Program-made: the position numbers and the translations under genes | Shown here: piece by piece, positions 43,301-61,008 of the stretch | How the letters are laid out: each line of letters begins with the position of its first letter | How positions within the stretch are numbered: the first letter of the stretch is position 1 | NCBI RefSeq assembly: GCF_028641065.1 | Contig: NC_073390.1 | Location: 9,796,001 to 9,860,000, forward strand | Length of the DNA: 64,000 nucleotides | Origin: Leucoraja erinacea | Lineage: Eukaryota | Reading direction: 5' to 3' | Notes under the pieces: generated by a model | Databases searched by the model: none | What the model was told of the DNA's origin: nothing | What the model saw: the letters and a program-made list of their open reading frames with translations, nothing else

Positions 43301-46300
43301 CATACACCCACCACCTTTTGTGTGAAAAGGTTACCCCTCAGATGTTACCCCTTTTAAATGTTTTCCCCTTCACCTTAAACCTATGTCTTCTTGTTCTCGA
43401 TTCACCTACTTTGGGCAAGAGACTATGCATCTACCCAATCTATTCCTCTCATGATTTTATACACCTCTATAAGATCATCCCTCATCCTCCTGCACTTCAA
43501 GGAACATAGTCTCAGCCTACTCAACCTCTCCAGATGGCCCTCCAGTTGTGGCAACATCCTTATAGATCTTCTCTGTACCCTTTCCAGCTTGACAACATCT
43601 TTCCTATAACATGGTGCCCAGAATTGAACACAATATTCGAAATGTGGCCTCGCCAACATCTTGTACAACTGCAACATGGCCTCCCAACTATACTCAATAT
43701 AGACACAAAATGGTGGAGTAAATCAGCGGAACTGGCAGCATCTCAGGAGAGAAGGAATGGGTGACGTTTCACGTCGAGCCCCTTCTTCAGAATCTGGGTC
43801 TGATTCTTCTATACTCAATACTCTGACTGATAAAGGCCAAAGTGCCAAACATTTTTTTGACCACCCTATCTACCTGTGACTCCACTTTCAAGGAACCATG
43901 CACCTGCACTCCTAGATCCCTCTGCTCTACAACACTCCCCAGAACCTTACCATTCACTGTGTAGGTCTTGCCCATGTATGACTTCCCAAAATGCAACACC
44001 ACATTTTTCTCTGGATTCAATTCCATTCCTCATCCCACCTGGCCAATCGATTAAGATCCTGCTGCAATTTTTCACAACCATTTTCACTATCAGCAAAACC
44101 ACCCACTCTTGTATCATCTGCAAGCTTGCTAATCTTGTCATGTATGTTCTCATCCAAACCATTGATATAGATGACAAACAGTACCGGGCACAGCATCGAA
44201 CTGTGTGGCACACCACTAATCACAGGCCTCCAGTCCGAGAAGCAACCTTTCACCATCACCGTCTGCTTCCTTCCATGAAGCCAATTTTCTATCCATTCAG
44301 CTATCTCTCCTTGGATCCCATGCGATCTAACCCTCCAGAGCAGCCTATCATGTGGAAGATTGTTGAATGCTTTGCTGAAGTCCATTTATATAACATCTAC
44401 AGCACTGCCCTCATCGACCTTTTTGGTCACATCTTCAAAAAACTCAAGATTTGTGAGACACAACCTCCCACTTACAAACCCATGCTAACTAACCTTGTCT
44501 ATCTAAATGCCTGTATATCCCTATCCCTCAGAATACTCTCCATTAACTTTCCAACTACAGATGTTAAGATCACTTGCCTATAGTTCCCAGAATTTTCTCT
44601 GCAGCCCTTCTTGAATAGAGGCACAATATTTGCTACCCTCCAGTCTTCCGGCACATCTCCTGTATTTAAAGACGACTCGTAAATTTCAACCAGGTCTACC
44701 GCAATTTCCTCTCTAGTTTCCCACAATGTCCTCGGATATATCTGATCAGGCCCTGGAGATTTGTCCATCTTCATACACGATAGTACCTTCAGCACTTCAA
44801 CTGTAACACTGAGTGCTCTCAAGACACTTCCATTGACTGATATCATGGGCTCTCATCTTCTTTAGCATCCTCACGTAATGTACTTCATCAAAGGCCTTCT
44901 GAAAATCCAGGAAAACCACACACACTGACTCTTCTTTGTCTATCCTGCTATTTACTTCCTCAAATAATTCCAACAGGTCCATCAGGCAAGACCTCCCTTT
45001 CATAAAACCTTGCTGGCCAGCCTATTTTGTCGTATGCTTCTAAGTACTCAGAAACTTCATCCTTTATAATGGACTATTTTATAGTGTTGATTGCTGGCAT
45101 CTGTTGGTTGAATACATGCATAATATATATTTGGGGTGCAATTAAATTGTGCATTTTTAAAATCACCAGTTATTGTTAAAGACTAGATTAGAACATTATA
45201 GGCGCATGTTTATTGAGAAGTATCAGATACCAGCAAAGAATTACTGATCTCACCCAAAAGGATTGTTGAATGCAATGGCATAGACCACATTTCTATGTCC
45301 CTCAAGTGTGTGGAGCTCTTCTCCTGATAGTGTGTCCCATAGTTTACAGGTTCGGTCATAGCTTCCTGTGATAAATCTAAGTGCAAGACAAATCATCAAA
45401 CTGTAATTGCTTAAATAAAAGCAAGGCAAATTTTACAAGTACACAATCTAAATATATCGATGCTCATGATACATATGTTATCTGCACACAGGAATATTTT
45501 AACATGAAGGTAAATTTCTGGGCTCAGGTATTTATCTGCATTCCCCAATCCCTGGTCATTAATGAGTAGTGCAGGCTCAAAACAAAATGAAGATAAAACC
45601 ACAACTAATCGACAAGATTAACTTTCATTAACTTCAGCAGCAATAACAGCACACAAAAGATCATATATCAATATGGCACATATTTGGGATTCTGTAATAA
45701 AAATGTTTCAGTTAATGAGGAAATCCAATTGCATTTGCAATTAAGTACGTTAAAACTTCTAGTTAATTAAGCATTCTCCCAATAAAACTACCTTTCAGTG
45801 CTGACCACTGCTGTTCTGATTTAACCTTCATGTGGGAAGACAGATAACAATATTTTTTTTCTGATTTCCAGCAACATGATGCAACCGGTTAGTTCACAGA
45901 CCTTTCAAATATTTGTTCTGGTTTCCTAATGGAATTTTGGAATTGTAAAAATTATGAAATTGCTGAGCTTTAGAAACAAATTCAAGGCTGTCTTGCGATA
46001 ACTGTTTTAAAACTACAAAATTGTTTAAAATAATTCATATTGAGTTCTAAGCAACTTCACTAACAGAATGATGAATGGATGTCCTTATTTTTTATAGTCA
46101 GACCTTGCGTTTTGGTTGTGGCTTGTAAAGCTTTCATTACTTTCAGGTCATCTTCTGGAAAATAGAATGCGATATTAATATTTATTGCCAAATCAAGGTT
46201 GTAAAATGGCAGCAACCTCCATTGGAGCCAGAAATTTGATGGTTTAATCCTTGCTCTAAGACTTTTCAAAACATGTATTTTGGATGAGGGTAAGATCCCA

Positions 46301-49300
46301 TGGGACTTCAAAGAACTTAAAACTCCTAACAAAATGTTGCTCAAAATACATTGCCAAAATGAAAATGGTGCCAGGGTCCAGGTTGTCTTTGTTGCATAAC
46401 ATTCTCAAAGGGAAGGGCAAGCAACCAGAAGTCGTTGTACATGTTGACATAAATAACATAGGTAGGAAAAGGGATGAAATCTACAGGGTGAATATATGGA
46501 GTTATGCTACAGATTTGACTTCGGCGTCACGTGAGTGACTTAGTGAAGAAGGCCCGTCCAGGCGCACATGCGTCATATCGTCAGACGCATAGTGACTGCG
46601 ACCGCGGTAGGAGGTGCAGAGCCCGCTAAGCGGTGAGTGAAAGAAAAACCTGAAGGTAAGTGCTTTTACTTTCACTTTCAGGCTGCTTTTCTTCAGTGGA
46701 GACTGCATGTAGAAACACAGGCAAGTCTTATTATGGAGAAAAGTGGGAGAAGTAAGGAAAAGCGCGCCGCAGTAAGAACTCAAGAGGACAGAATGTCTGA
46801 GAGTCGCGGGCGCCTGACGAAAAAGTCGGCGAAGAAAAACCAGCAACTTCTAAAACGGGAGAAAAATTCTGGCAGCATCAAAAAAAGGGCTGCCAGAATA
46901 TGATTCTATGGAAGAGCCTGTGATACCCAAAAAGGGTTGACTAAGCGTAGGCCTATCAGAGAGCCAGCGCATGAAATACCTGAAGAAGAAATGCCAGGTG
47001 AACCCCATTATGAGGAGGAATATCCAGAAGATTTTGACAATGAATCATATGAGGACCAGAGCCCAATAATACAACGCAAAGTACCAGGCCTGGCCCAAAA
47101 ATTCTTTAGTCCCAGACACAAGGGACAACCTCTGCCAGGAAATATAGCAGAAAGTATAAATTACCTGCTTTCCCATCATTTGGAAGAACCAACGATGGAT
47201 GAGATTGTGAACAAATACGAAATCCCACAGAATTGTGCCCTGCTAGCAGTCCCAGCACTAAACAGTGAAATATGGGGTTATTTGGGCACCGCAGTACGCG
47301 CACAAGAAATTATGTTACAGCGGGTGCTAAGATTAATGGGGTCAAGCATTACGACATTTGCCAGAGACCTGGAAGAAGGAAATGTGACAACGTCACAACA
47401 GGATGTTATGGGGATGATGTGTAATGCACACTTTGAAATAAACTGTATTCGTAAAAGTGCGATAAGACCTAACATACATCCTAAGTTTGCAGGGCTCTGT
47501 AAACCATCGAATATACAATTGCTGAACTTACTCTTTGGAGAAGATCTTGCCAAAAATCTGAAAGTCTTAAATGAAGAAGCAAAAACCATGGGTATGATAA
47601 AACCACCAATGTTTGGCAGAACAGTTCAAAGGCAATATCCATACCGAAGGTACACAAAAATGCTGGAGAAACTCAGCAGGTGCAGCAGCATCTATAAAGC
47701 GAAGGAAATAGGTGGCGTTTCAGGCCAAAACCCTTCTTCAGACTGATGGGGGTTGGGGGGGGGGGGGGGGGGAGAAGGAAGGAAAAAGGGAGGAGGAGGA
47801 GCCCGAGGGCGGGGGGATGGGAGGAGACAGCTCGAGGGTTAAGGAAGGGGAGGAGACAGCAAGGGCTAGCAAAATTGGGAGAATTCAATGTTCATGCCAA
47901 CCGGACGCAAGCAACCCAGGCGGAATATGAGGTGCTGTTCCTCCAATTTCCGGTGTTGCTCACTCTGGCAATGGAGGAGACCCAGGACAGAGAGGTCGGA
48001 TTGGGAATGGGAGGGGGAGTTGAAGTGCTGAGCCACCGGGAGTTCAGGTAGGTTATTGCGGACTGAGCGGAGGTGTTCGGCGAAACGATCGCCCAACCTC
48101 CGCTTAGTCTCACCGATGTAAATCAGCTGACATCTAGAGCAGCGGATGCAGTAGATGAGGTTGGAGGAGATACAGGTGAACCTTTGTCGCACCTGGAACG
48201 ACTGCTTGGGTCCTTGAATGGAGTCGAGGGGGGAGGTGAAGGGACAGGTGTTGCATTTCTTGCGGTTGCAACGGAAAGTGCCTGGGGAGGGGGTGGTACG
48301 GAAGGGAAGGGAAGTATTGACAAGGGAGTTGCGGAGGGAGCGGTCTTTGCAGAAGGCAGACATGGGGGGAGATGGGAAGATGTGGCGAGTGGTGGGGTCA
48401 CGTTGGAGGTGGCGGAAATGGCGGAGGATTATGTGTTGTATTTTCCGGCTGGTGGGGTGAAAGGTGAGGACTAGGGGGACTCTGCCCTTGTTGCGAGTGC
48501 GGGGATGGGGCAGTGTTGCGGGGTATGGAAGAGACCCTGGTGCGAGCTCATGTATGGTGGAGGAGGGGAATCCCCGTTCCCTGAAGAGCGAGGACATTAG
48601 CGATGCCCTGGTGTGGAACGTCTCATCCTGGGAACAGATGCGGCGTAGGCAGAGGAATTGGGAGTAGGGGATGGAGTCTTTACTGGGGGCAGGGTGGGGA
48701 GACGTGTAGTCCAGATAGCCATGTGAGTCAGTTGGTTTGTAGTGTATGTCGGTCAGAAGTCTTCCCACCCTGCCCCCTGTAAAGACTCCATCCCCTACTC
48801 CCAATTCCTCTGCCTACGCCGCATGTGTTCCCAGGATGAGACGTTCCACACCAGGGTATCGGAAATGTCCTCGCTCTTCAGGGAACGGGGATTCCCCTCC
48901 TCCACCATACATGAGGCTAACACCAGGGTCTCTTCCATATCCCGCAACACTGCTTTCTCACCCCATCCCCGCACTCGCAACAAGGGCCTTAACAAGTCTC
49001 AGCCCTTTTGTACGGTATAAACATTTCAAAATGGAGACATTTACTAATGCTTTGCATCTAATTTCAACAGAATGCTATATGGCAAGCATAGATCTCCAAG
49101 ATGCATATTACTCTGTGGCCGTGCATGTGAATGACCGTACATATTTGAAATTTATCTGGATGAGTCAATTGTGGCAATTCAAAGCATTGCTTATGGGTTA
49201 ACCTCAGCCCCTAGATTGTTTACAAAATTGCTAAAACCAATTTTAGCATTGTTAAGAGCCCAGGGCCATTTGGTAATGGCTTATTTGGATGACATTTTAA

Positions 49301-52300
49301 TTGTGGGAGACACTGAAGCCACAACAAAAGCATTAGTTTTAGAAGTCAAACAAACATTTCAAAATCTGGGCTTTCTTATCCATCCAGATAAATCTAGACT
49401 GTCACCTAATAAAACAATTGATTACTTTGGGTTCACTATTAATTCAGAGCACATGACAGTGACCTTACCAAAGGACAAAAAGCTGCAGTTAATTGAAGGT
49501 TGTAACAAACTAATTTCAGGTCAAAAACCATCAATTAGGCAAGTGGCAAGCCTACTTGGCAAACTATTTGCTTCTTTTCCAGCTGTTCAGTTTGGTCCAC
49601 TGCATTACCAACAACTGCAGCGAGCAAAGGTCCAAGCATTAAAAAGACATTCCGGGCATTTTGATAGACCCATGCAACTGCCAAAAACAGCAATTGATGA
49701 TATACAATGGTGGATTAAGAATGTTCATTATTCTTACAGAAAAATTCTGGTTGAATCACCAGCTATCATTCTACAAACTGATGCAAGCGCACTAGGTTGG
49801 GGAGCTGCTCAAGTCAAGTCAAGTCAAGTCAATTAGCCTTTATTGTCATTCAGACCTTGCGGTCTGAACGAAATGTTGTTGCCTTGCAGTCCTACATATA
49901 GTAAAAATGACAAAAACACACAATAAACACAAATTAACATCCACCACAGTGAGTTCACCAGGCACCTCCTCACTGTGATGGAAGGCAAAAATCTTAAGTC
50001 TTTATCTCTTCCCTTTTCCTTCTTATTCTCCCTCTGCGCCGAGGCGATCCAGGCTTCAGATGTTATGACCCCGCCGGGCGATGGTAAGTAATGTCAGTCC
50101 CGCGGCTGAATCCGAGCTCCGCGAACGGGCCGGTTCAACTCCGCGGCCCAGGGTGGTCGAAGTTGCCGAAGCTGTGGCCCCCCAGTCCAGCGGACGCAGC
50201 TGTTGTCGCTGCCCCAGCTCCAAGGCCGCGTCGCCTCTGCTGTCGGAACACCACAGCTCCGGAGTCGGACCGCTGCCGCTGGAACGCTGCCCCTGCTGCC
50301 TCGGCGCAGGCGGAGACGGAGACGGGGGATACGACAAGAGAAGTCGCATCCCCCCGAAGGAAGAGCCCAAAAACATGTCCCCCCCCCCCCACACACACAT
50401 ACACAACCTAATAAACCAAAAATTAACTGAAACAGGACAAAAGAACAACAAAAAAAAGAAAAAAAACAGACGGACTGCAGGCGAACCGCAGCTGCTAAGG
50501 CAGCGCCGCAATCTTGCTGATACCATCTCAAGCTGTGGAGGTAGATGGAGTGCGCAGGAAGAACCTTTGCTCGAGGCACATGGCATTAACTATCTTGAAT
50601 TATTAAGTACATTTCATGGGCTTAAAGCTCTTTGCGCTAAGATGCAAAATTTGCATCTGCAGGCTCGGATTGACAACACCACGGCAGTAGCATATGTCAA
50701 TCATATGGGTGGAATCAAGTCAGAAGCATGTGACAGATTGGCAAACATGATCTGGCACTGGTGCATTACGAGAAACATTTGGCTTTCTGCAATTTACCTC
50801 CCAGGTAAATTCAATATAATTGCAGACAGTAGGTCACGAAAATTTAATGACAATACAGAATGGATGTTAAATCGTGACATTTTCCATATCATTGTTCAAA
50901 AATTTGGAAAACCAGAAATTGACTTGTTTGCATCCAGACTGAACCATCAGTTACCTCAATATGTTTCATGGGAACCAGGCCCAGGGGCAACAGGGGTAGG
51001 CATTCTCGCTAAATTGGGGTGGAATGTTTTTATATGCATTTCCTCCCTTTTGTCTTATCAGTAGATGTCTACAAAAGATCAAACAAGATAATGCTTCAGG
51101 ATTATTGGTTGTCCCAGATTGGCCCACATAACCATGGTATCCACTAGTGTTAAAAATGGTGACAGAACCTCTAATGCATATCTCAAGACAAGAAAACCTA
51201 CTTTTGCACCCTGTAACTGGTGATTTTCATCCTTTGCATGATCGTAATGATTTGTTGATTTGCAGATTCTAAAAAGGCTTTATGTCGGAAGAAGACTATC
51301 AAATTGCACTATGGATGTAATTGCATGATCCTGGAGGGATAGTGCCCAGAAGCAGTATGTTTCTCACATTAAGAAATGGGAGGAGTTTTGTGCAAGACAA
51401 AACATTTCATACCACACTGCAGACACTTCAGATGTTGTAGAATTTTTGTCAACATTACATTTTGATGTAAATTTAAGTTATAATGCGATCAACACTGCAA
51501 GGAGTGCCCGCTCTGCATATTTATGGAGAGCATCTGAACAACAGGTTCTAGGGTCACACCCCTTGGTTTGTAGATACATGAAGGGTATCTTTAATGCTAA
51601 ACTTCCCAGACCGAGATATACGGAAATCTGGAATGTGAGGGATGTACTCATGTTACTTCGGGATTGGAGTCCCATCTCAAATTTGTCTTTAGACAAAATT
51701 ACCATGAAAGTAGGCATGTTAATGGCATTAGCTTCAGCACAAAGAGTTACAGACATTACACAAATTACGTATAGACAGAATGGGAATGACAACAGAGGAA
51801 ATTACATTCTATGTCTATGACTTGCTAAAACAGAGCAGACTAGGAGTCACGGGGTGTAAATTGGTCATTACAGCATATCCTACAGATCCAAGACTTTGTG
51901 TAGTGACACATTTGAAACACTACATTGAGGCCACCAAGCACTTTAGAGGTGTAGAACCCGCATTATTTATCAGCCATAAAAAAACACACAAAAAAGTGTC
52001 AACACAAACCATTTCCAGATGGCTGAAGCAGGTGCTATTGGATGCAGGAATTGATACTGACAAATTTAAATCTCATTCCACCAGGGCGGCGGCAACATCG
52101 GCGGCCAAGGATTTGGACGTTCCAATAGACCATATCCTCACGGTCGCAGGATGGGCAAACGAACGGATGTTTTACAAGTATTACCACAAAGAGATTGCAG
52201 ACCCTAGTCTATTTGGTGGTACTGTTTTGGATTCAGTATTAAATGTTCCCAGTGATTAAAAGGGGACACAAAATGTTTATGATAAATAAACCATTAACTG

Positions 52301-55300
52301 ATTACATAAATGTTATGGTTGTGTGTTATTGACTGTCTTTCACTCATAGAGTCAATCAAATGCAGTGATACGCCAGAATTGAATCTACGGCCTGAAATCA
52401 CAGAAGCTTTAAAACCTTCACGTAGTCACTCATGTGACTCCGAAGTAAAATAGTAAGATTAAACGAGAACTTACCAGTTTGAAGTTTGATCTTTATTTTA
52501 TGAGGAGTTACGTTGAGGGACTACGTGCCCTCCACTCCCACCCTAATCAAGATCAAAGGTAAGTTAAGTTGGTATCACGTAGCTTACTATTATCCTTCGG
52601 TATCTATCATCTGTGATTTCACACCGCTGCTTTGAAGATTGACGTATGTGCGCCTGGACGGGCCTTCTTCACGTAGTCTCTCACGTAACTCCTCATAAAA
52701 TAAAGAGCAAACTTCAAACTGGTAAGTTCTCACTTAATCTTACTATTAAAAAGCAGGACTCTGAGGTTTAGTAATCTCTGGATTACTCCCGGTGCCACAT
52801 GCTACTCTGTCATTACAGAATGATTTAAACCAATTTTATAGTTTGAAAACAGTTATCGCAAGACAGCCTTGAATTTGTTTCTAAAACTCGGCAATTTCAT
52901 AATTTTTACAATTCCAAAAAGTGGAGGACATTAGGAAACCAGAACAAATATTTGAATGAGGTCTGTGAACTATCTGGTTGCATCATGTAACTGGATATCA
53001 GAAAAAAAACATTGTTATCTGTCTGTCCACATGAAGCGTAAATCAGGACAGCAGCGGTAACACATGATAAGAATAGGAAAATAGAACAGATGATTGCGTG
53101 GCGCAGGAGTTGGTGCAAGGGCAGGGATTCAGATTTTTAGACCATTGGGATCTCTTCTCGAGCAGAGATGACCTGTACAAGAGGGACGGACGGGTTGCAT
53201 CTGAACTGGAGGGAGACCAATACCTTACAAGTGTTACGAGGGTTTAAACTAGAAAGGGAGGAGAATGGGAAACAGAGTAGTAGGTCAGAAATTGGTAGAG
53301 TGATGGGAAGATAGAGGTTAGGATCTGTCAGCCTGAAAGGGAGGACAGGCAGAGAGAGGTGAAGGAATATGGTGAAGGTAATGGGCAGAAGTATGCTTAT
53401 TTCAATGCAAAGGTATTGTTTTGCAGATGAACTTGGAGCCTGGATCAGTGCTTGGGATTCTGATGTTGTGGCCACTGCAGAAACGTGGTTGTGAGAGTGG
53501 CCTCAAAGCCCTCCGGTTCTTCCTCGACCAGAGGAGCAACCTGTAGCCAGCCAATGACACTCTCCTCCGCCTAGCGGAGTTGGTCCTCACCCTCAACAAC
53601 TTTACGTTTGACTCCTCCCATTTCCTCCAAACACAAGGCGTAGCTATGGGCACACGCATGGGCCCCAGCTACGCCTGCCTCTTTGTCGGGTACGTCGAAC
53701 AATCCTTGTTCAATACGTACCAGGGCCCCATCCCCGACCTTCGTTACATTGACGACTGCTTTGGGGCCACCTCCTACACCCACACACAGCTGACTGACTT
53801 CATCCACTTCACCACCAACTTCCATCCGGCACTCCAATACACCTGGACCATTTCCGACACTTCCCTACCATTCCTTGACCTCACCATCTCCATCGCAGGG
53901 GACAGACTTCTGACCAACATACACTACAAACCAACTGACTCACATGGCTATCTGGACTACACGTCTTCCCACCCTGCCCCCTGTAAAGACTCCATCCCCT
54001 ACTCCCAATTCCTCTGCCTACGCCACATCTGTTCCCAGGATGAGACGTTCCACACCAGGGCATCGGAAATGTCCTCGCTCTTCAGGGAACGGGGATTCCC
54101 CTCCTCCACCATACATGAGGCTCACACCAGGGTCTCTTCCATACCCCGCAACACTGCTCTCTCTCCCCATCCCCGCACTCGCAACAAGGGCAAAGTCCCC
54201 CTAGTCCTCACCTTTCACCCCACCAGCCGGAAAATACAACAAATAATCCTCCGCCATTTCCGCCACCTCCAACGTGACCCCACCACTCGCCACATCTTCC
54301 CATCTCCCCCCATGTCTGCCTTCCGCAAAGACCGCTCCCTCCACAACTCCCTTGTCAATTCTTCCCTTCCCTCCACTCAGTCTGCAATAACCGACCTGAA
54401 CTCCCGGTGGCTCAGCACTTCAACTCCCCCTCCCATTCCCAATCCGACCTCTCTGTCCTGGGTCTCCTCCATCGCCAGAGTGAGCAACACCGGAAATTGG
54501 AGGAACAGCACCTCATATTCCACCTGGGTTGCTTGCGTCCGGATGGCATGAACATTGAATTCTCCCAATTTTGCTACCCCTTGCTGTCTCCTCCCCTTCC
54601 TTAACCCTCGAGCTGTCTCCTCCCATCCCCCCGCCCTCGGGCTCCTCCTCCACCCTTTTTCCTTCCTTCTCCCCCCCCCCACCCCCCATCAGTCTGAAGA
54701 AGGGTTTCGGCCCGAAATGTCAACCATTTCCTTCGCTCCATAGATGCTGCTGCACCCGCTGAGTTTCTCCAGTATTTTTATGTACATTGTGAGAGGGACA
54801 TGACTGGCAGTTCAGTGTTCCGGCATTTAAATGTTTAAGACATGATGGAGAGGGAAGGAAAATAGGTGGAGGAGTTGCGCTATTAATCAGGGAGACTGTC
54901 ACAACTGTATTCAGAGGGGACATACTTGAGGGTTCATCCACTGAGGTGATATGGGTAGAACTTAAAAATGAGAAAAGTGCAAGCACTCTAATGGAATCGC
55001 GCTATGTCCCCCATTAGCAAGAAAGGGATAAAGGATAAGATATGTGGATAGATTACCAAACAAATGTCAAAGCACATTGCACCAAAGATTCGGGTTCGAT
55101 CCTGACTGTATTCTTGCTGTCTGTATGAAGTTTGCACGATTTTGCTGAGACCACGTGGATTTCCTCTGGGTGCTCTGGTTTCCTCCCACATACCAAAGAT
55201 ATGTCGGTTCGTGGGTTGATTGGCCTCTGTAAATTACCCCTTGTGTAGGGAGTGGATGCGGAAGTGGAATAACATGGAGCTAGTGTGAACGGGTAATCGA

Positions 55301-58300: not shown

Positions 58301-61008
58301 GGATGTTATCCGGCCCTGCAGCTTTGCGTGGATTGATGCTGGCAAAGGCCTTTTTAACTCCGGCTGTGGACAGCCTGAGTGACTGGTCGCTGGGTGTTGG
58401 CAGGAGTGCTTGTATCTGGGTGGTATTTTTAACCTCAAACTGTGCGTAAAACTCGTTCAGTTCATCTGGTAGAGAGGGGTCGTTTTGGCATATCCACAGC
58501 GGGAATATATAGTCAGTGATGGTATGAAATCCCTGCCACAAGCGACGTGTGGCTTTGTCATTTGTGAAGTGGCTATTAAGTTTTTGTACATACCGCCTCT
58601 TCGCTTCCCTGATCCCCCGGGATAGGTTACTCCATGCCAGTTTGTATGCTGCGTTGTCCCCAGATTTGAATGCAGCATTCCGGACTCTCAGTAGAGAACA
58701 AACTTCCCCAGTTAGCCAAGGTTTCTGATTGGCACGCCTCTTGACGGTTTTAACCACAGTCACATCATCAATGGATTTATTAATGTATGCGATGACAGAC
58801 TCTGTATATTCTTGGAGGTCAATGCCACTGTCACATGTTGCTGCCTCTCTGAAAATGGTCCACTGTGTGGTTTCAAAACAGTCTTGCAGTGCTGTGGTAG
58901 CTCCCTGTGGCCATATTCTGACTTCTTTGACCATTGGCCTGTCCTGGTTCACCCAAGGTCTGTATACAGGTGTGAGCATAACCGCCAGATGGTCAGAGTT
59001 GCTGATGTGGGGGAGGGGGTCTGCTCTATATGAATCCTTGATGTTTGTGTACACCAGGTCTAGTGTGTTCTTTCCTCTGGTTGCAATATTCACATGCTGG
59101 TAGAATTTAGGCAGAACAGATGTTAGACTTGCCTTGTTGAAATCTCCAGCTGCCATGAAGAAAGCCTCGGGATGTTCCCTCTGCTGCTCACTGATGTTGT
59201 TGTAGAGCTCTGTCATAGCATCCTTCACGTCCACTCTCGGTGGTACATAGGCGGCCGTTATGAAGACTGCCGTTAGCTCCCTCGGTAAGTAGAAGAGTCG
59301 GAATTTCACAATCATTAGCTGTACGTGGGGTGAGCAGTAAGTGGGAACCACCACGGCATTCCGGCACCACGATCTGTTAACGTACACAGCCAGGCCGCCT
59401 CCCCTTGACTTACCAGCTAGCGAAGCTAGGGTGGTGGATGTCATCTACATGAATTTAGGTAACGCCTTGTATAAAGTATCCTATGGTAGGCTTATCCAGA
59501 AGATTAAGATGCATGAGATTAGTAGCTTGGTCATAGTGATTCATGACTTGCTTACTGATAGAAGACAGAATGCTGTGGCGGAAGGGCAATATTCAGATTG
59601 GAGGTCTATTGCCAGCAGAGTCCCACAGGAATAGGTGCTAGGACCTCTGCTGTTTGTGGTATGTATAAATTACTTGACATAAATGTAGACGTTGGTAAGT
59701 ACACAGATGACACCAAGATTGCTGAGGTCACCGACTGTGCAGAAGGATGCCGAAGTATACAGCGGGATATAGATTTACTACAGAAATGGGTGAACAAATG
59801 GCAGGTGGAGTTTAATCCAAGCAAGTGTGAGGTGTGGCACTTTGATAAGTTGAATATAAGGGTAAAATATACTATTAATTGGAGGACCGTTAACAGCCTT
59901 GATATACAGAGGAATCCTAGTGTCCAAGTCCAGAGCTCCCTCAAAGTAGCAACACAAGTAGATAGTGGTGAAAAATGCATACAATATGCTTGCCTTCATA
60001 GATAAGACATTGTGTATAAGAGTCAGGATGCCATGATGCAGTTTCATAGACTTTGGCTAGGCCACATTTGGAATATTGCATGCAATTCTGGTTACCCCAT
60101 TACAGGAAGGGTCTGGAAGCTTTGGAAGTTGACTAGAATGATGCCTGGATTAGGCTGTATTGGCTCCAGGGAGAGGTTGGACTGATTTGCATTGTTTACT
60201 CTGAAAAAATGGCGGATGCGGGGAAACCTGATTAAAGTATATAATATTATGAGACAGAATCTTTTTTCACAGGACTGAAGAATCAAATGCAAAAGAGTAT
60301 GCGCATGGCAAGTTTTTTTTTTACACAGAGATTGGTGAGTGCTTGGGACGCACTGCCAGGAGTGGTGGTAGAGGCAGATACGATTGTGTCATTTCAGAGA
60401 CTTTTGGATACACATAAGCATTTGCAGAGAATGGTGAATATGCACCATGTGTTTTTTTTACAAGAGATTTTGTGAGTGCTTGGGACGCACTCGCCAGCAG
60501 TGGTGGTAGAGGCGCATATCGATTGTGTCAATTTCAGAGACTTTCGGATACACATAAGGCATTTGCAGAGAATGGGAAATTATGCATATGCAAAGGCAGC
60601 AGATAAGAGACGGCACTATGTTCAGCAAAGACATTGTGGATTGAAGGGTCTGTTCCTGTTTTGAACTGTACTATGTTCTATTTATATCATTCTTTGTTTG
60701 TAGAACCTATAACATGGAAACTGCTTGTCAACGTGGAATGGAAGAGCAAAATCAAAAGCTAAGAGCTTTAAATTCAATTTAAATTCAATTTAATAAGGCT
60801 CCACATTTCCCATCTTGCCAGCGCTCGCTTGCACAATCCCTGCAAGAATGGAAACTAATATTCAGACTGATGATTCTGTCAGAACACCACATTTTTCACA
60901 TTCAACTTCTTGGGCACATGGGTTAACAGAGAACAAGTAGGACACGTACCTTGAGCCAGACTTATTGAATGCAACATTTGTCAGTGGCAGTATGTGCGCC
61001 CGAAGTAC
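3315..61008 (-). CDS. DAW1: DAW1 (WDR69/ODA16) dynein assembly factor with WD repeats 1; spliced gene, 10 coding exons in window, 5' exons outside
   Basis: Exons of 59, 123, 100, 108, 107, 103, 115, 77, 163 and 35 bp splice in frame via GT-AG sites into a WD40 protein (GH..W-D repeats) that matches my recollection of vertebrate DAW1, ending [11 protein letters not shown]. Confidence 0.96.
3854..4016 (-). CDS. DAW1: DAW1 exon ([54 protein letters not shown])
   Basis: 163 bp; acceptor tgtcag, donor gtacag. Confidence 0.95.
5853..6166 (-). mobile_element. tRNA-derived SINE (V-SINE/HE1-like)
   Basis: B-box-like GGTTCGATCCC and conserved core on the minus strand; CTAAA-type tail. Confidence 0.8.
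7077..7665 (+). mobile_element. GC-rich non-autonomous retroelement fragment
   Basis: CpG-rich stretch ending GGGGATGAATAAAGTTT(ATCAT)n, a LINE-like tail. Confidence 0.5.
8400..10578 (+). mobile_element. Rex1/Babar LINE, 5'-truncated, inserted in a CR1
   Basis: [40 protein letters not shown] and GAPQG motifs; AATAAA followed by a (CTTA)-like tail; frameshifts present. Confidence 0.9.
10908..11856 (-). mobile_element. Non-autonomous GC-rich retroelement (SINE-like) with an internal tandem array, copy 1
   Basis: Shares both ends with 49810-50514; 3' hairpin TTCAGACC-TTTC-GGTCTGAA plus AATAAA; interrupts a CR1. Confidence 0.75.
12315..12391 (-). CDS. DAW1: DAW1 exon ([26 protein letters not shown])
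   Basis: 77 bp; acceptor ttcaag, donor gtaggt. Confidence 0.94.
15540..15760 (+). repeat. Purine-rich (GA) low-complexity tract
   Basis: Nearly pure G/A run. Confidence 0.85.
15880..16150 (-). mobile_element. CR1 fragment
   Basis: ORF 15820..16134 contains [15 protein letters not shown]. Confidence 0.85.
17208..17322 (-). CDS. DAW1: DAW1 exon ([38 protein letters not shown])
   Basis: 115 bp; acceptor ttccag, donor gtaggt. Confidence 0.95.
17822..18858 (+). mobile_element. Non-autonomous DNA transposon, TAG...CTA termini, 7-bp TSD (copy A)
   Basis: Imperfect TIRs TAGGTATGTT / AACATTGCTA; TSD GTAGATG / GTAAATG; highly similar to 32698-33736. Confidence 0.85.
19560..19662 (-). CDS. DAW1: DAW1 exon ([34 protein letters not shown])
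   Basis: 103 bp; acceptor tgttag, donor gtaggt; visible in ORF 19335..19658. Confidence 0.95.
19834..21084 (+). mobile_element. Tc1/mariner element, internally deleted
   Basis: TA TSD; ~200-bp TIRs starting CAGTGCATTGAGAAAGTATTCAGAC with an internal direct repeat; transposase remnant FQQDND and [15 protein letters not shown] (ORF 20480..20809). Confidence 0.93.
22395..22501 (-). CDS. DAW1: DAW1 exon ([35 protein letters not shown])
   Basis: 107 bp; acceptor tttcag, donor gttcgt; visible in ORF 22322..22540. Confidence 0.95.
23330..23705. mobile_element. tRNA-derived SINE pieces in opposite orientations
   Basis: Plus piece ~23330-23450 and minus piece ~23460-23705 of the same family. Confidence 0.7.
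24687..25640. mobile_element. Foldback/MITE-like element with long modular inverted arms
   Basis: Arms 24687-24982 and 25416-25640 are reverse complements built from repeated GCCAAATAACCGAA-like units; the centre holds an N gap and a Penelope-end derivative. Confidence 0.65.
24983..25134. other. Assembly gap (152 N)
   Basis: N run. Confidence 0.99.
26813..26920 (-). CDS. DAW1: DAW1 exon ([36 protein letters not shown])
   Basis: 108 bp; acceptor ttctag, donor gtatgt. Confidence 0.95.
27290..27820 (+). mobile_element. L1/Tx1-like 3' fragment
   Basis: Cys/His-containing C-terminal-like segment followed by AATAAAGTCTATTTT and an A-tract. Confidence 0.5.
28876..29095. repeat. Palindromic Penelope-end derivative with back-to-back hammerhead-like cores. 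Similar palindromes at ~1184-1386, 4238-4392, 13955-14160, 25135-25328 and 55798-56005; single arms at ~7890, 13790, 21370, 29440, 43700 and 63190
   Basis: Arms match the 3' end of the Penelope copies (54690-54786); centre reads CTTCATCAG|T|CTGAAGAAG. Confidence 0.8.
29664..30470 (+). mobile_element. 5' fragment of a second DIRS family (left terminus plus start of gag)
   Basis: TTTTACTTCGGAGTCACGTGAGTGACTACGTGAAG terminus. [15 protein letters not shown] resembles [15 protein letters not shown] in the gag of the full element. Fused to a CR1 at ~30465. Confidence 0.82.
30465..30832 (+). mobile_element. CR1 RT fragment
   Basis: [19 protein letters not shown]; nearly identical to ~40840-41200. 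Confidence 0.88.
31150..31850. mobile_element. Two tRNA-derived SINEs head-to-head (minus ~31150-31470, plus ~31535-31850)
   Basis: Same SINE core in both orientations, with (CTAAA)n tails pointing outward. Confidence 0.78.
32307..34511 (+). mobile_element. Non-autonomous Helitron
   Basis: A|TC 5' end; GGGACCC-AAT-GGGTCCC hairpin at 34484-34500; CTAG|T 3' end; no TSD; C-rich interior. Confidence 0.8.
32698..33736 (+). mobile_element. Non-autonomous DNA transposon, TAG...CTA termini, 7-bp TSD (copy B, nested in a Helitron)
   Basis: TIRs TAGGTATGTTACAAAA / TTTTGTAACATTGCTA (14/16); perfect TSD CTGTGAG. Confidence 0.87.
34741..36333. mobile_element. Putative non-autonomous TIR element (TAG...CTA) containing a telomere-like tract and a Penelope fragment
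   Basis: TAGGCCGTGGGCCGAGGTG at 34741 is inverted to CACCTCGGCCCACGGTCTA ending at 36333 (18/19); no clear TSD. Confidence 0.6.
35000..35390. mobile_element. Rearranged Penelope 3' fragment (inverted plus forward pieces)
   Basis: [20 protein letters not shown] on the minus strand, followed by the forward 3' end (GMNIDFSNF and the CTGAAGAAGGG motif). Confidence 0.75.
36513..36612 (-). CDS. DAW1: DAW1 exon ([33 protein letters not shown])
   Basis: 100 bp; acceptor ttttag, donor gtaagt; visible in ORF 36504..36707. Confidence 0.96.
37430..40315 (+). mobile_element. L1-clade LINE ORF2 fragment, split by a Helitron
   Basis: [26 protein letters not shown] motifs; C-terminal [12 protein letters not shown] zinc-knuckle-like segment at 40097-40342. 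Confidence 0.88.
38360..39875 (+). mobile_element. Non-autonomous Helitron inserted in an L1
   Basis: A|TC 5' end; CAGACCC-AAC-GGGTCTG hairpin at 39847-39863; CTAG|T 3' end; removing it rejoins the L1 sequence (ttccaacaa|ttacaatt). Confidence 0.85.
40322..41815 (+). mobile_element. CR1 LINE 3' part, relatively young
   Basis: [33 protein letters not shown] and [12 protein letters not shown] motifs; (TTTCTATG)n tail. Confidence 0.93.
42030..45065 (-). mobile_element. Cluster of degenerate CR1 fragments (at least two nested copies)
   Basis: Minus-strand ORFs with [28 protein letters not shown] and NYR motifs. Confidence 0.82.
45254..45376 (-). CDS. DAW1: DAW1 exon ([42 protein letters not shown])
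   Basis: 123 bp; acceptor acttag, donor gtgaga; in frame with neighbouring exons. Confidence 0.95.
46937..47650 (+). pseudogene. DIRS gag-like ORF1, truncated by Penelope insertion
   Basis: Long open frame after the left ITR, with a PQNC..L.VP.LNSEIW segment; homologous to the second DIRS fragment at ~30370-30465. Confidence 0.75.
47651..48987 (-). mobile_element. Penelope-like element fragment (RT C-terminus plus GIY-YIG) with an inverted 5' segment, nested in DIRS
   Basis: ORF 47866..48804 contains [19 protein letters not shown] and [16 protein letters not shown]; ~48760-48987 is an inverted copy of part of the body. Confidence 0.9.
48988..51270 (+). pseudogene. DIRS pol remnant: RT, RNase H and N6-adenine methyltransferase-like domain (frameshifted, interrupted)
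   Basis: Motifs [72 protein letters not shown], and YAFPPF at ~51033-51050 in a shifted frame. Confidence 0.88.
49810..50514 (-). mobile_element. Same non-autonomous retroelement family, copy 2, inserted in the DIRS RNase H region
   Basis: (TTGAC)n tail; hairpin TTCAGACC-TTGC-GGTCTGAA; TGCT duplicated at the junctions; removing it restores [15 protein letters not shown]. Confidence 0.8.
51280..52259 (+). pseudogene. DIRS tyrosine recombinase remnant
   Basis: [13 protein letters not shown] and AGW...FYKYY catalytic-type motifs in ORFs 51446..51820 and 51780..52259, with one frameshift between them. Confidence 0.88.
53498..54786 (+). mobile_element. Penelope-like element, 5'-truncated and internally deleted, with 9-bp TSD
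   Basis: ORF 53580..54551 contains [14 protein letters not shown] and RYIDD; TTGTGAGAG is duplicated at 53489-53497 and 54787-54795. Confidence 0.9.
54691..54725 (+). ncRNA. Minimal type I hammerhead-ribozyme-like motif at the Penelope 3' end
   Basis: CUGAAGA, an extra A, stem GGGU-UUCG-GCCC, GAAA, then U-GUC; Penelope-like elements are known to carry such motifs; helix I is very short. Confidence 0.6.
55080..55630 (+). mobile_element. Two tandem tRNA-derived SINE copies
   Basis: GGGTTCGATCCTGAC and GGTTCGATTCTGAC boxes, shared core, (CTAAA)n tail. Confidence 0.78.
57089..59424 (-). mobile_element. Rex1/Babar LINE (endonuclease plus partial RT), inserted in a CR1
   Basis: ORFs 58266..59444 ([17 protein letters not shown]) and 57901..58296 ([20 protein letters not shown]); (ATACTGA)n tail at the left end. 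Confidence 0.9.
60950..61008 (-). CDS. DAW1: DAW1 exon ([19 protein letters not shown])
   Basis: 59 bp; acceptor atctag, donor gtacgt; ends phase 2. Confidence 0.93.

Follow-up and report, generated by a model that had tools for sequence, protein, structure and literature searches.

A DIRS1-like retrotransposon copy is present in a stretch of 64,000 nucleotides (nt) of the Leucoraja erinacea genome (GCF_028641065.1, contig NC_073390.1, positions 9,796,001–9,860,000). This whole stretch is called the window, and positions are counted from its first letter. The copy spans 46513–52747, with ATT at either end. We conclude with good confidence that it is a decayed, internally deleted representative of a DIRS1-like element approximately 5.0 kb long, seated at an ATT within a CR1-like repeat in an intron of DAW1, that it likely arrived by a circle and recombinase route templated by its internal complementary region (ICR), and that it belongs to a guild of DIRS1 families whose shared end site likely permits movement in trans. 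A wider claim, to which we give slightly less than an even chance, is that this guild uses one frozen recombination site, resembling an attachment site, with genes diverged by a third; that elements insert into one another's ends and ICRs; that host targets mimic the site past the 3-bp core; that full-length families with dead genes ride on the site and outnumber several coding families, being the first large non-autonomous elements described with inverted terminal repeats (ITRs) plus an ICR; and that run-on right ends are genomic fossils of ICR-templated end completion. The window copy is genuine yet damaged, a probably new member of the known DIRS1 superfamily. Taken alone it is an ordinary fossil; the surrounding genome offers thousands of insertions for testing recombinase specificity.

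Analysis of the termini revealed an ITR and ICR organization. The left terminus (46513–46583, forward strand) consists of the ATT core (46513–46515), an outer ITR part reaching to 46548, which pairs with the left half of the ICR, and an inner ITR matched at 29 of 30 positions. The right ITR and right extension occupy 52633–52747 (forward strand) and end in the ATT core at 52745–52747. The ICR (52416–52527, forward strand) has two halves, one of 36 nt that complements the left end and one of 79 nt that complements the right end, and they overlap on AAT. The left end (46513–46548) paired with the first ICR half (52416–52451) at 31/36 positions with a local score of 47, and the right end (52670–52747) with the second half (52449–52527) at 93.7% over 79 nt with a local score of 131; the maxima over 100 shuffles each were 26 and 28, respectively. 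The sizes were approximately 36 nt for the outer ITR, 30–37 nt for the inner ITR, 45 nt for the right extension, and 36 + 79 nt for the ICR. When reversed, the ICR reads right end, ATT, and left end in the window copy and in 20/20 siblings, with occasional point changes. An earlier reading made from the letters alone (the sequence-only reading) had proposed that the ICR spells the circle junction and had set beforehand that the complementarity should recur in other genomic copies; both are borne out by the siblings and, together with the domain matches given below, uphold the assignment to DIRS1. No long terminal direct repeats were found, the ends being inverted repeats, which sets the copy apart from the split-direct-repeat organization of PAT-like and Ngaro elements.

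The host repeat, which we take to be CR1-like from its translation, has its left part at 46370–46512 (forward strand) and picks up in register at 52748; it gave 336 first-look candidates in the genome. The empty CR1 site holds a single ATT and keeps a spacing identical to that of uninterrupted CR1-like copies, so only the core is repeated, and beyond this 3-bp core neither duplication nor loss of target could be observed at either end. CR1 as the insertion host and the lack of a target site duplication (TSD) had accordingly been read correctly. The target had been given as ATTT; it is ATT, the fourth T being part of the element and the spacing of the empty site being kept. As for the proposed bounds, 46514–52747, the right end stands and the left end moves to 46513.

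Reads and contigs were found stacked on the element ends alone, which prompted a search for the end pattern. A left-end 27-mer gave 10,599 exact matches genome-wide and 0 in the control, and about 5,300 elements, a lower bound, carry it. Twenty paired loci on one contig fell into many groups, with interiors 65–79% identical or unalignable, and their right-terminal 79 nt, which the search had not selected, matched the window copy at 68–72 of 79 positions. Near-identical ends are carried by families diverged by 25–35% in the interior. Among recombinase loci picked by Pfam profile (n = 30, 27 assessable), the ICR was present in 26 and the right end scored in 25; their tyrosine recombinases (YRs) were 49–69% identical to that of the window copy. 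The pile of reads on the ends could have come from a short miniature element, but none was found, the paired loci being families of 4.3–5.2 kb, though very short elements were not directly searched. The shared end site likely lets the proteins of any active family move other families.

The proposed course of events follows the DIRS-1 model (PMC7192593; here and below, statements on cited work are limited to the accessible portions of each source). An intact source element would have been transcribed and then reverse-transcribed. Its ends would have been completed on the ICR, yielding a junction with one ATT, and the recombinase would have joined the ATT of the circle to a genomic ATT with a right side similar to the junction arm. 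Decay and two nested insertions would have followed integration.

Target choice was evaluated at the element ends, where the core was ATT at 142/152 right ends and 101/103 left ends. The right flank was biased to the circle's own arm, with T at +2 in 59% vs 31%, A at +3 in 51% vs 31%, and C at +7 in 36% vs 19%, and G was avoided at +1. Biases of the left flank were weaker and without a clear match to the circle arm. A short run-on artefact was rejected as the origin of the bias, since T at +2, A at +3, and C at +7 were also enriched in the 103 ends whose first flank base was not T. The resemblance of host targets to the circle junction is a weak one. Such a preference past the trinucleotide would predict the position at which the recombinase binds.

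Insertion of one element into another was evaluated at junction sites only. The pattern of right ITR, right end, ATT, and left end occurred at 51 loci, with 0 in the control. Head-to-tail joins were present at 12 of the 30 junction loci examined; the best-matching families differed on either side in 9 of the 12, and 3 joins were confirmed using long flanks. Another 17 loci, re-fetched, comprised 3 insertions into the ICR of another family, 3 clear run-ons, 4 probable run-ons lacking a left end or ICR that could be checked, 5 ordinary ICRs on the other strand, and 2 unresolved cases, and the last three classes were not counted as support. By a rough estimate, 0.25–2 end insertions and 0.13–1 ICR insertions would be expected by chance. 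In the three ICR insertions (L323, L332, and L334), whole elements, one of them a gene-dead member of family N2 (see below), stand exactly at an ICR junction; the element that receives them is in each case from another family and in the opposite orientation.

At five loci (L098, L100, L324, L330, and L337), the right end extends past ATT by approximately 36–98 nt that match the element's own ICR reversed, and the left junction is ordinary. L098 and L100 were considered as tandems and rejected, the sequence past the right end being ICR-derived with no second element. Furthermore, the last two core letters deviated more at right ends (11/304) than at left ends (1/206; p 0.03). These ends could result from a linear or fold-back intermediate, in which the right end, in plus sense, is extended after pairing with the ICR, the recombinase making one junction and host repair the other. 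We regard this as the main rival explanation and as unlikely, though far from negligible; the run-ons and the core asymmetry favor a fold-back without requiring it, and the stronger flank bias on the right is in line with it. However, the run-ons are rare, being a subset of 51 exact loci set against some 5,300 elements, and could reflect later repair, and L323, L332, and L334, with junction sequence on both sides, fit plain reciprocal recombination.

Several points weigh against a circle route and a guild with movement in trans. Neither a circle nor a transcript nor a new insertion was observed, and in Dictyostelium the polymerase chain reaction for circular junctions failed and the complementary DNA was mostly linear (PMC7192593), the latter also favoring a fold-back. 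The five clear run-ons with an ordinary left junction are not expected from clean reciprocal exchange. Selection of the 20 paired loci relied on the left-end motif and a single contig, so DIRS families that end differently are perhaps under-sampled, and the Pfam-picked control was dominated by one family (22/27 cluster at 85%). First-look candidates do not give copy numbers, and the helper proteins for the gene-dead families N1 and N2 are inferred candidates. With these points weighed, arrival by an ICR-templated circle remains the preferred reading.

Eight of the 20 paired loci belonged to N1 or N2, two abundant families with shared lesions, neither of which can code for a functional reverse transcriptase (RT) or YR. 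In N1, the RT was reduced to 18–21 of 180 residues and the YR was broken in 14/14 full-length copies, the sample deriving from 20 fetched loci with 8 dropped for an unrecovered end. These copies were 95–99% identical pairwise over 4–4.7 kb, with differing flanks and precise ends on many contigs, and the top 40 genome matches, among 4,319 first-look candidates, were 98–100% identical. In N2, the YLDD half of RT and the entire RNase H were gone in 20/20 loci, which were picked with a query spanning the deletion. Gene-dead copies of the two families were 92–100% identical, each with its own flanks. Shared death together with separate precise insertions points to movement in trans, and N1 and N2 likely move in this way; for such cis-only passengers, the ends and the ICR are likely sufficient for movement. 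Gene conversion or segmental duplication of old dead elements could also give shared ends and near-identical dead copies, as thousands of homologous copies provide many donors and the ICR could homogenise the ends inside one copy. We consider this improbable, given that the highly similar N1 copies have different flanks and precise ends across contigs and that the interiors of separate families stay 25–35% apart with their ends alike. One further degenerate element (L197) had intact ends and no RT match and is possibly from a third passenger family.

In the window copy, five of six DIRS1 features could be found, namely RT with RNase H, YR, a methyltransferase (MT)-like domain, the ITR and ICR, and the same end trinucleotide without TSD. 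Open reading frame 1 (ORF1) had no Pfam or Atlas match, and its gag-like identity rests on its expected position and on conservation between families. The ORF1 remnant (46733–47650, forward strand) was 41% identical over 188 amino acids (aa) to a natural ORF1; it has lost approximately 350 nt at 46866/46872 relative to siblings and also its 3' end, and carries small frameshifts. The pol remnant begins at residue 170 and thus lacks the RT N-terminus, covering residues 170–694 of a 694-aa natural pol frame, and approximately 484 nt that include where pol starts are deleted at 47650/48989 relative to siblings. Its first segment (48989–49809, forward strand) contains RT without the N-terminal 169 residues, YLDD at 49282–49293, and the start of RNase H, and its second (50515–51269, forward strand) contains the remainder of RNase H and the MT-like domain, with IDLFAS at 50918, YAFPPF at 51033, and one stop. 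The YR (51266–52259, forward strand), found in place of a DDE integrase, has HSTR at 52074 and one early stop. Frameshifts were located near 46830, 46928, 49189, 50998, and 51746. Pfam analysis gave RVT_1 in pol (E 5e-13) and Phage_integrase in the YR (E 2.8e-9), both above cut-off, and Phage_int_SAM_4 (E 5e-4); RNase H had no Pfam RNase H match, and its acidic motifs were invariant in 123/123 homologues. The motifs on which the sequence-only reading had relied (YLDD, the RNase H acidic motifs, IDLFAS, YAFPPF, and HSTR) were all present, and the two profile matches above cut-off confirm its RT and YR.

Two insertions are nested in the copy. The first (47651–48988, reverse strand) is a fragment, presumably Penelope-like, with a GIY-YIG domain (E 2.8e-4, below cut-off) and an internal inverted duplication, and it occupies the site of the 484 missing nt. 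A relative 93–97% identical to this fragment (47647–48987) lies at 53899–54788, approximately 1.2 kb right of the element. The second (49810–50514, no strand assigned) is a non-coding repeat of high copy number that ends in (CAAGT)n and shows an approximately 4-bp duplication; it splits RNase H and gave 6,963 first-look candidates in the genome. Both are missing from sibling copies, which upholds the two nested insertions of the sequence-only reading; their excision was expected to restore the element, but it leaves deletions and frameshifts, and the copy is not restorable in this way because two large private deletions and several frameshifts are present too. Three unbroken frames with all domains were not found in the copy. 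A structurally complete element needing only the removal of two insertions and carrying an active adenine methyltransferase is most improbable, and its completeness is refuted, for although each of the four domains and each repeat is represented and siblings align at 93–96% either side of each insertion, approximately 830 nt are gone, including pol residues 1–169, frameshifts lie in ORF1, RT, MT, and YR, stops are present, and the catalytic motif reads FPPF in 120/123 homologues.

Active N6-adenine methyltransferases of the Dam/PCIF1 type carry the motif (D/N/S/H)PP(Y/F/W). Across 123 aligned pol proteins, the first position of this motif was F in 120, L in 2, and a gap in 1, with N, D, S, or H in 0/123, so that 'adenine-MTase' is a homology label and not the name of an enzyme here. 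The DLFA and RLN motifs were near invariant. Profile scores of the region were below cut-off (PCIF1_WW E 0.009, Dam E 0.07), a PDB sequence search with the domain gave no match, and its single-sequence predicted fold had low confidence (pLDDT 35). The ratio of nonsynonymous to synonymous substitution (dN/dS) was 0.06–0.14 for the MT domain in four pairs of natural open frames, compared with 0.06–0.08 for RT and 0.07–0.17 for RNase H, some synonymous distances being close to saturation. The domain is therefore under strong purifying selection. With FPPF at the catalytic motif it is likely inactive, and with a dN/dS as low as that of RT and RNase H it is likely a needed, non-catalytic binding domain; 'function unknown' thereby becomes a question of binding. 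DIRS1 MTase domains have been judged likely inactive and PCIF1-derived (PMC4738411), and the weak PCIF1_WW and Dam scores and the substituted catalytic motif agree with that account, to which the dN/dS measurement made here is added.

The window copy's family was compared within the genome and in sequencing runs. All 40 scored 3' matches, the window itself counted, were 92–100% identical, and the nearest copies were 94–96% identical. Siblings without large insertions or deletions measured 4,851–5,046 nt. Unbroken pol and YR were found in 0/57 loci, some of them partial, and the lesions vary from copy to copy, the pattern to be expected if the family was once autonomous and its copies decayed after they inserted. 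The family gave 445 first-look candidates. It is a minor and probably extinct member of the DIRS1 guild, which spans the genome. In runs X1–X20 (8 studies, 5 organism labels), 0.21–0.37 of the sampled words of the family were present, and in X1 all 30 bins were covered, in short pieces; the family likely predates several species splits. No RNA run was among those listed as containing the family; in three RNA runs labelled as other organisms, depth over the interior was sparse and most end matches were partial, which is uninformative on expression. The one relative seen with a species name was a coral protein; the representative of its cluster was 46% identical.

The location in DAW1 could be confirmed by minus-strand exons on both sides of the element, one upstream of the host intron (60940–61008) and one downstream (45255–45380), with approximate bounds; they match PDB DAW1 residues 89–111 and 108–149. 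The element is bracketed by a 240-bp inverted duplication, 88% identical (45804–46036 and 52818–53058), of which these two copies alone were found in the genome. Its right copy interrupts the CR1-like repeat and is therefore likely a templated insertion of local origin with no link to the DIRS event. From 29663 to approximately 31000, the same gene contains another DIRS1 left end, accompanied by an ORF1 remnant from a different family; no pol or YR match was found up to 45000.

With regard to earlier reports, DIRS elements have been described in chondrichthyans (PMC4350176) and Gypsy/DIRS1 makes up 2.5–3.7% of batoid genomes (bioRxiv 10.64898/2026.10.27.761883), so the proposal of a possibly uncharacterised chondrichthyan DIRS was overstated. 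A literature search, with subscription journals, Repbase Reports, and supplements outside its scope, found neither descriptions of cartilaginous-fish DIRS1 families nor non-autonomous ITR/ICR elements, and the accessible portions of PMC9210276, PMC8498967, PMC8969392, PMC12477816, and PMC5633606 contained no ITR/ICR passengers or cross-family ends. As of 2020, the specificity of DIRS recombinases had not yet been investigated experimentally (PMC7192593).

Compared with the DIRS1-like superfamily (PMC3266345, PMC7192593), the element has in common a putatively gag-like ORF, a pol of RT, RNase H, and MT, a YR with HSTR, unequal ITRs, a right extension, ICR halves that overlap by a 3-bp junction, and the lack of a TSD, and its length is near the average of 5.16 kb. 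Self-insertion has been reported for Dictyostelium DIRS-1 as well (PMC3266345, PMC7192593). That self-insertion showed no apparent sequence preference (PMC5633606), whereas insertion here, among the junction sites searched, falls precisely on ends and ICRs and crosses families. The window copy, unlike an active element, is dead. The mollusc elements AcaDIRS1/2 and LgDIRS1/3 have ATT/ATT ends, an outer ITR of 30–36 nt, an inner ITR of 31–36 nt, a right extension of 48–49 nt, and an ICR of approximately 40 + 87 nt (PMC3266345 Table 3), a likeness by sizes in a different host, the present one being a vertebrate. The elements of fish, frog, and lizard are unlike, with GTT, TTT, or CTT ends and an inner ITR of 102–148 nt (PMC3266345 Table 3). 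The repeat proportions found here are nearer to the mollusc elements than to those of fish, frog, and lizard, which is a likeness of size and not a tree. TOC1 of Chlamydomonas is of the split-direct-repeat type, whereas N1 and N2 are decayed ITR/ICR elements of 4.7–5 kb with ends common to many candidate helper families. An active non-autonomous DIRS, TOC1 moves without its own enzymes (bioRxiv 10.1101/2022.06.16.496473), as N1 and N2 would.

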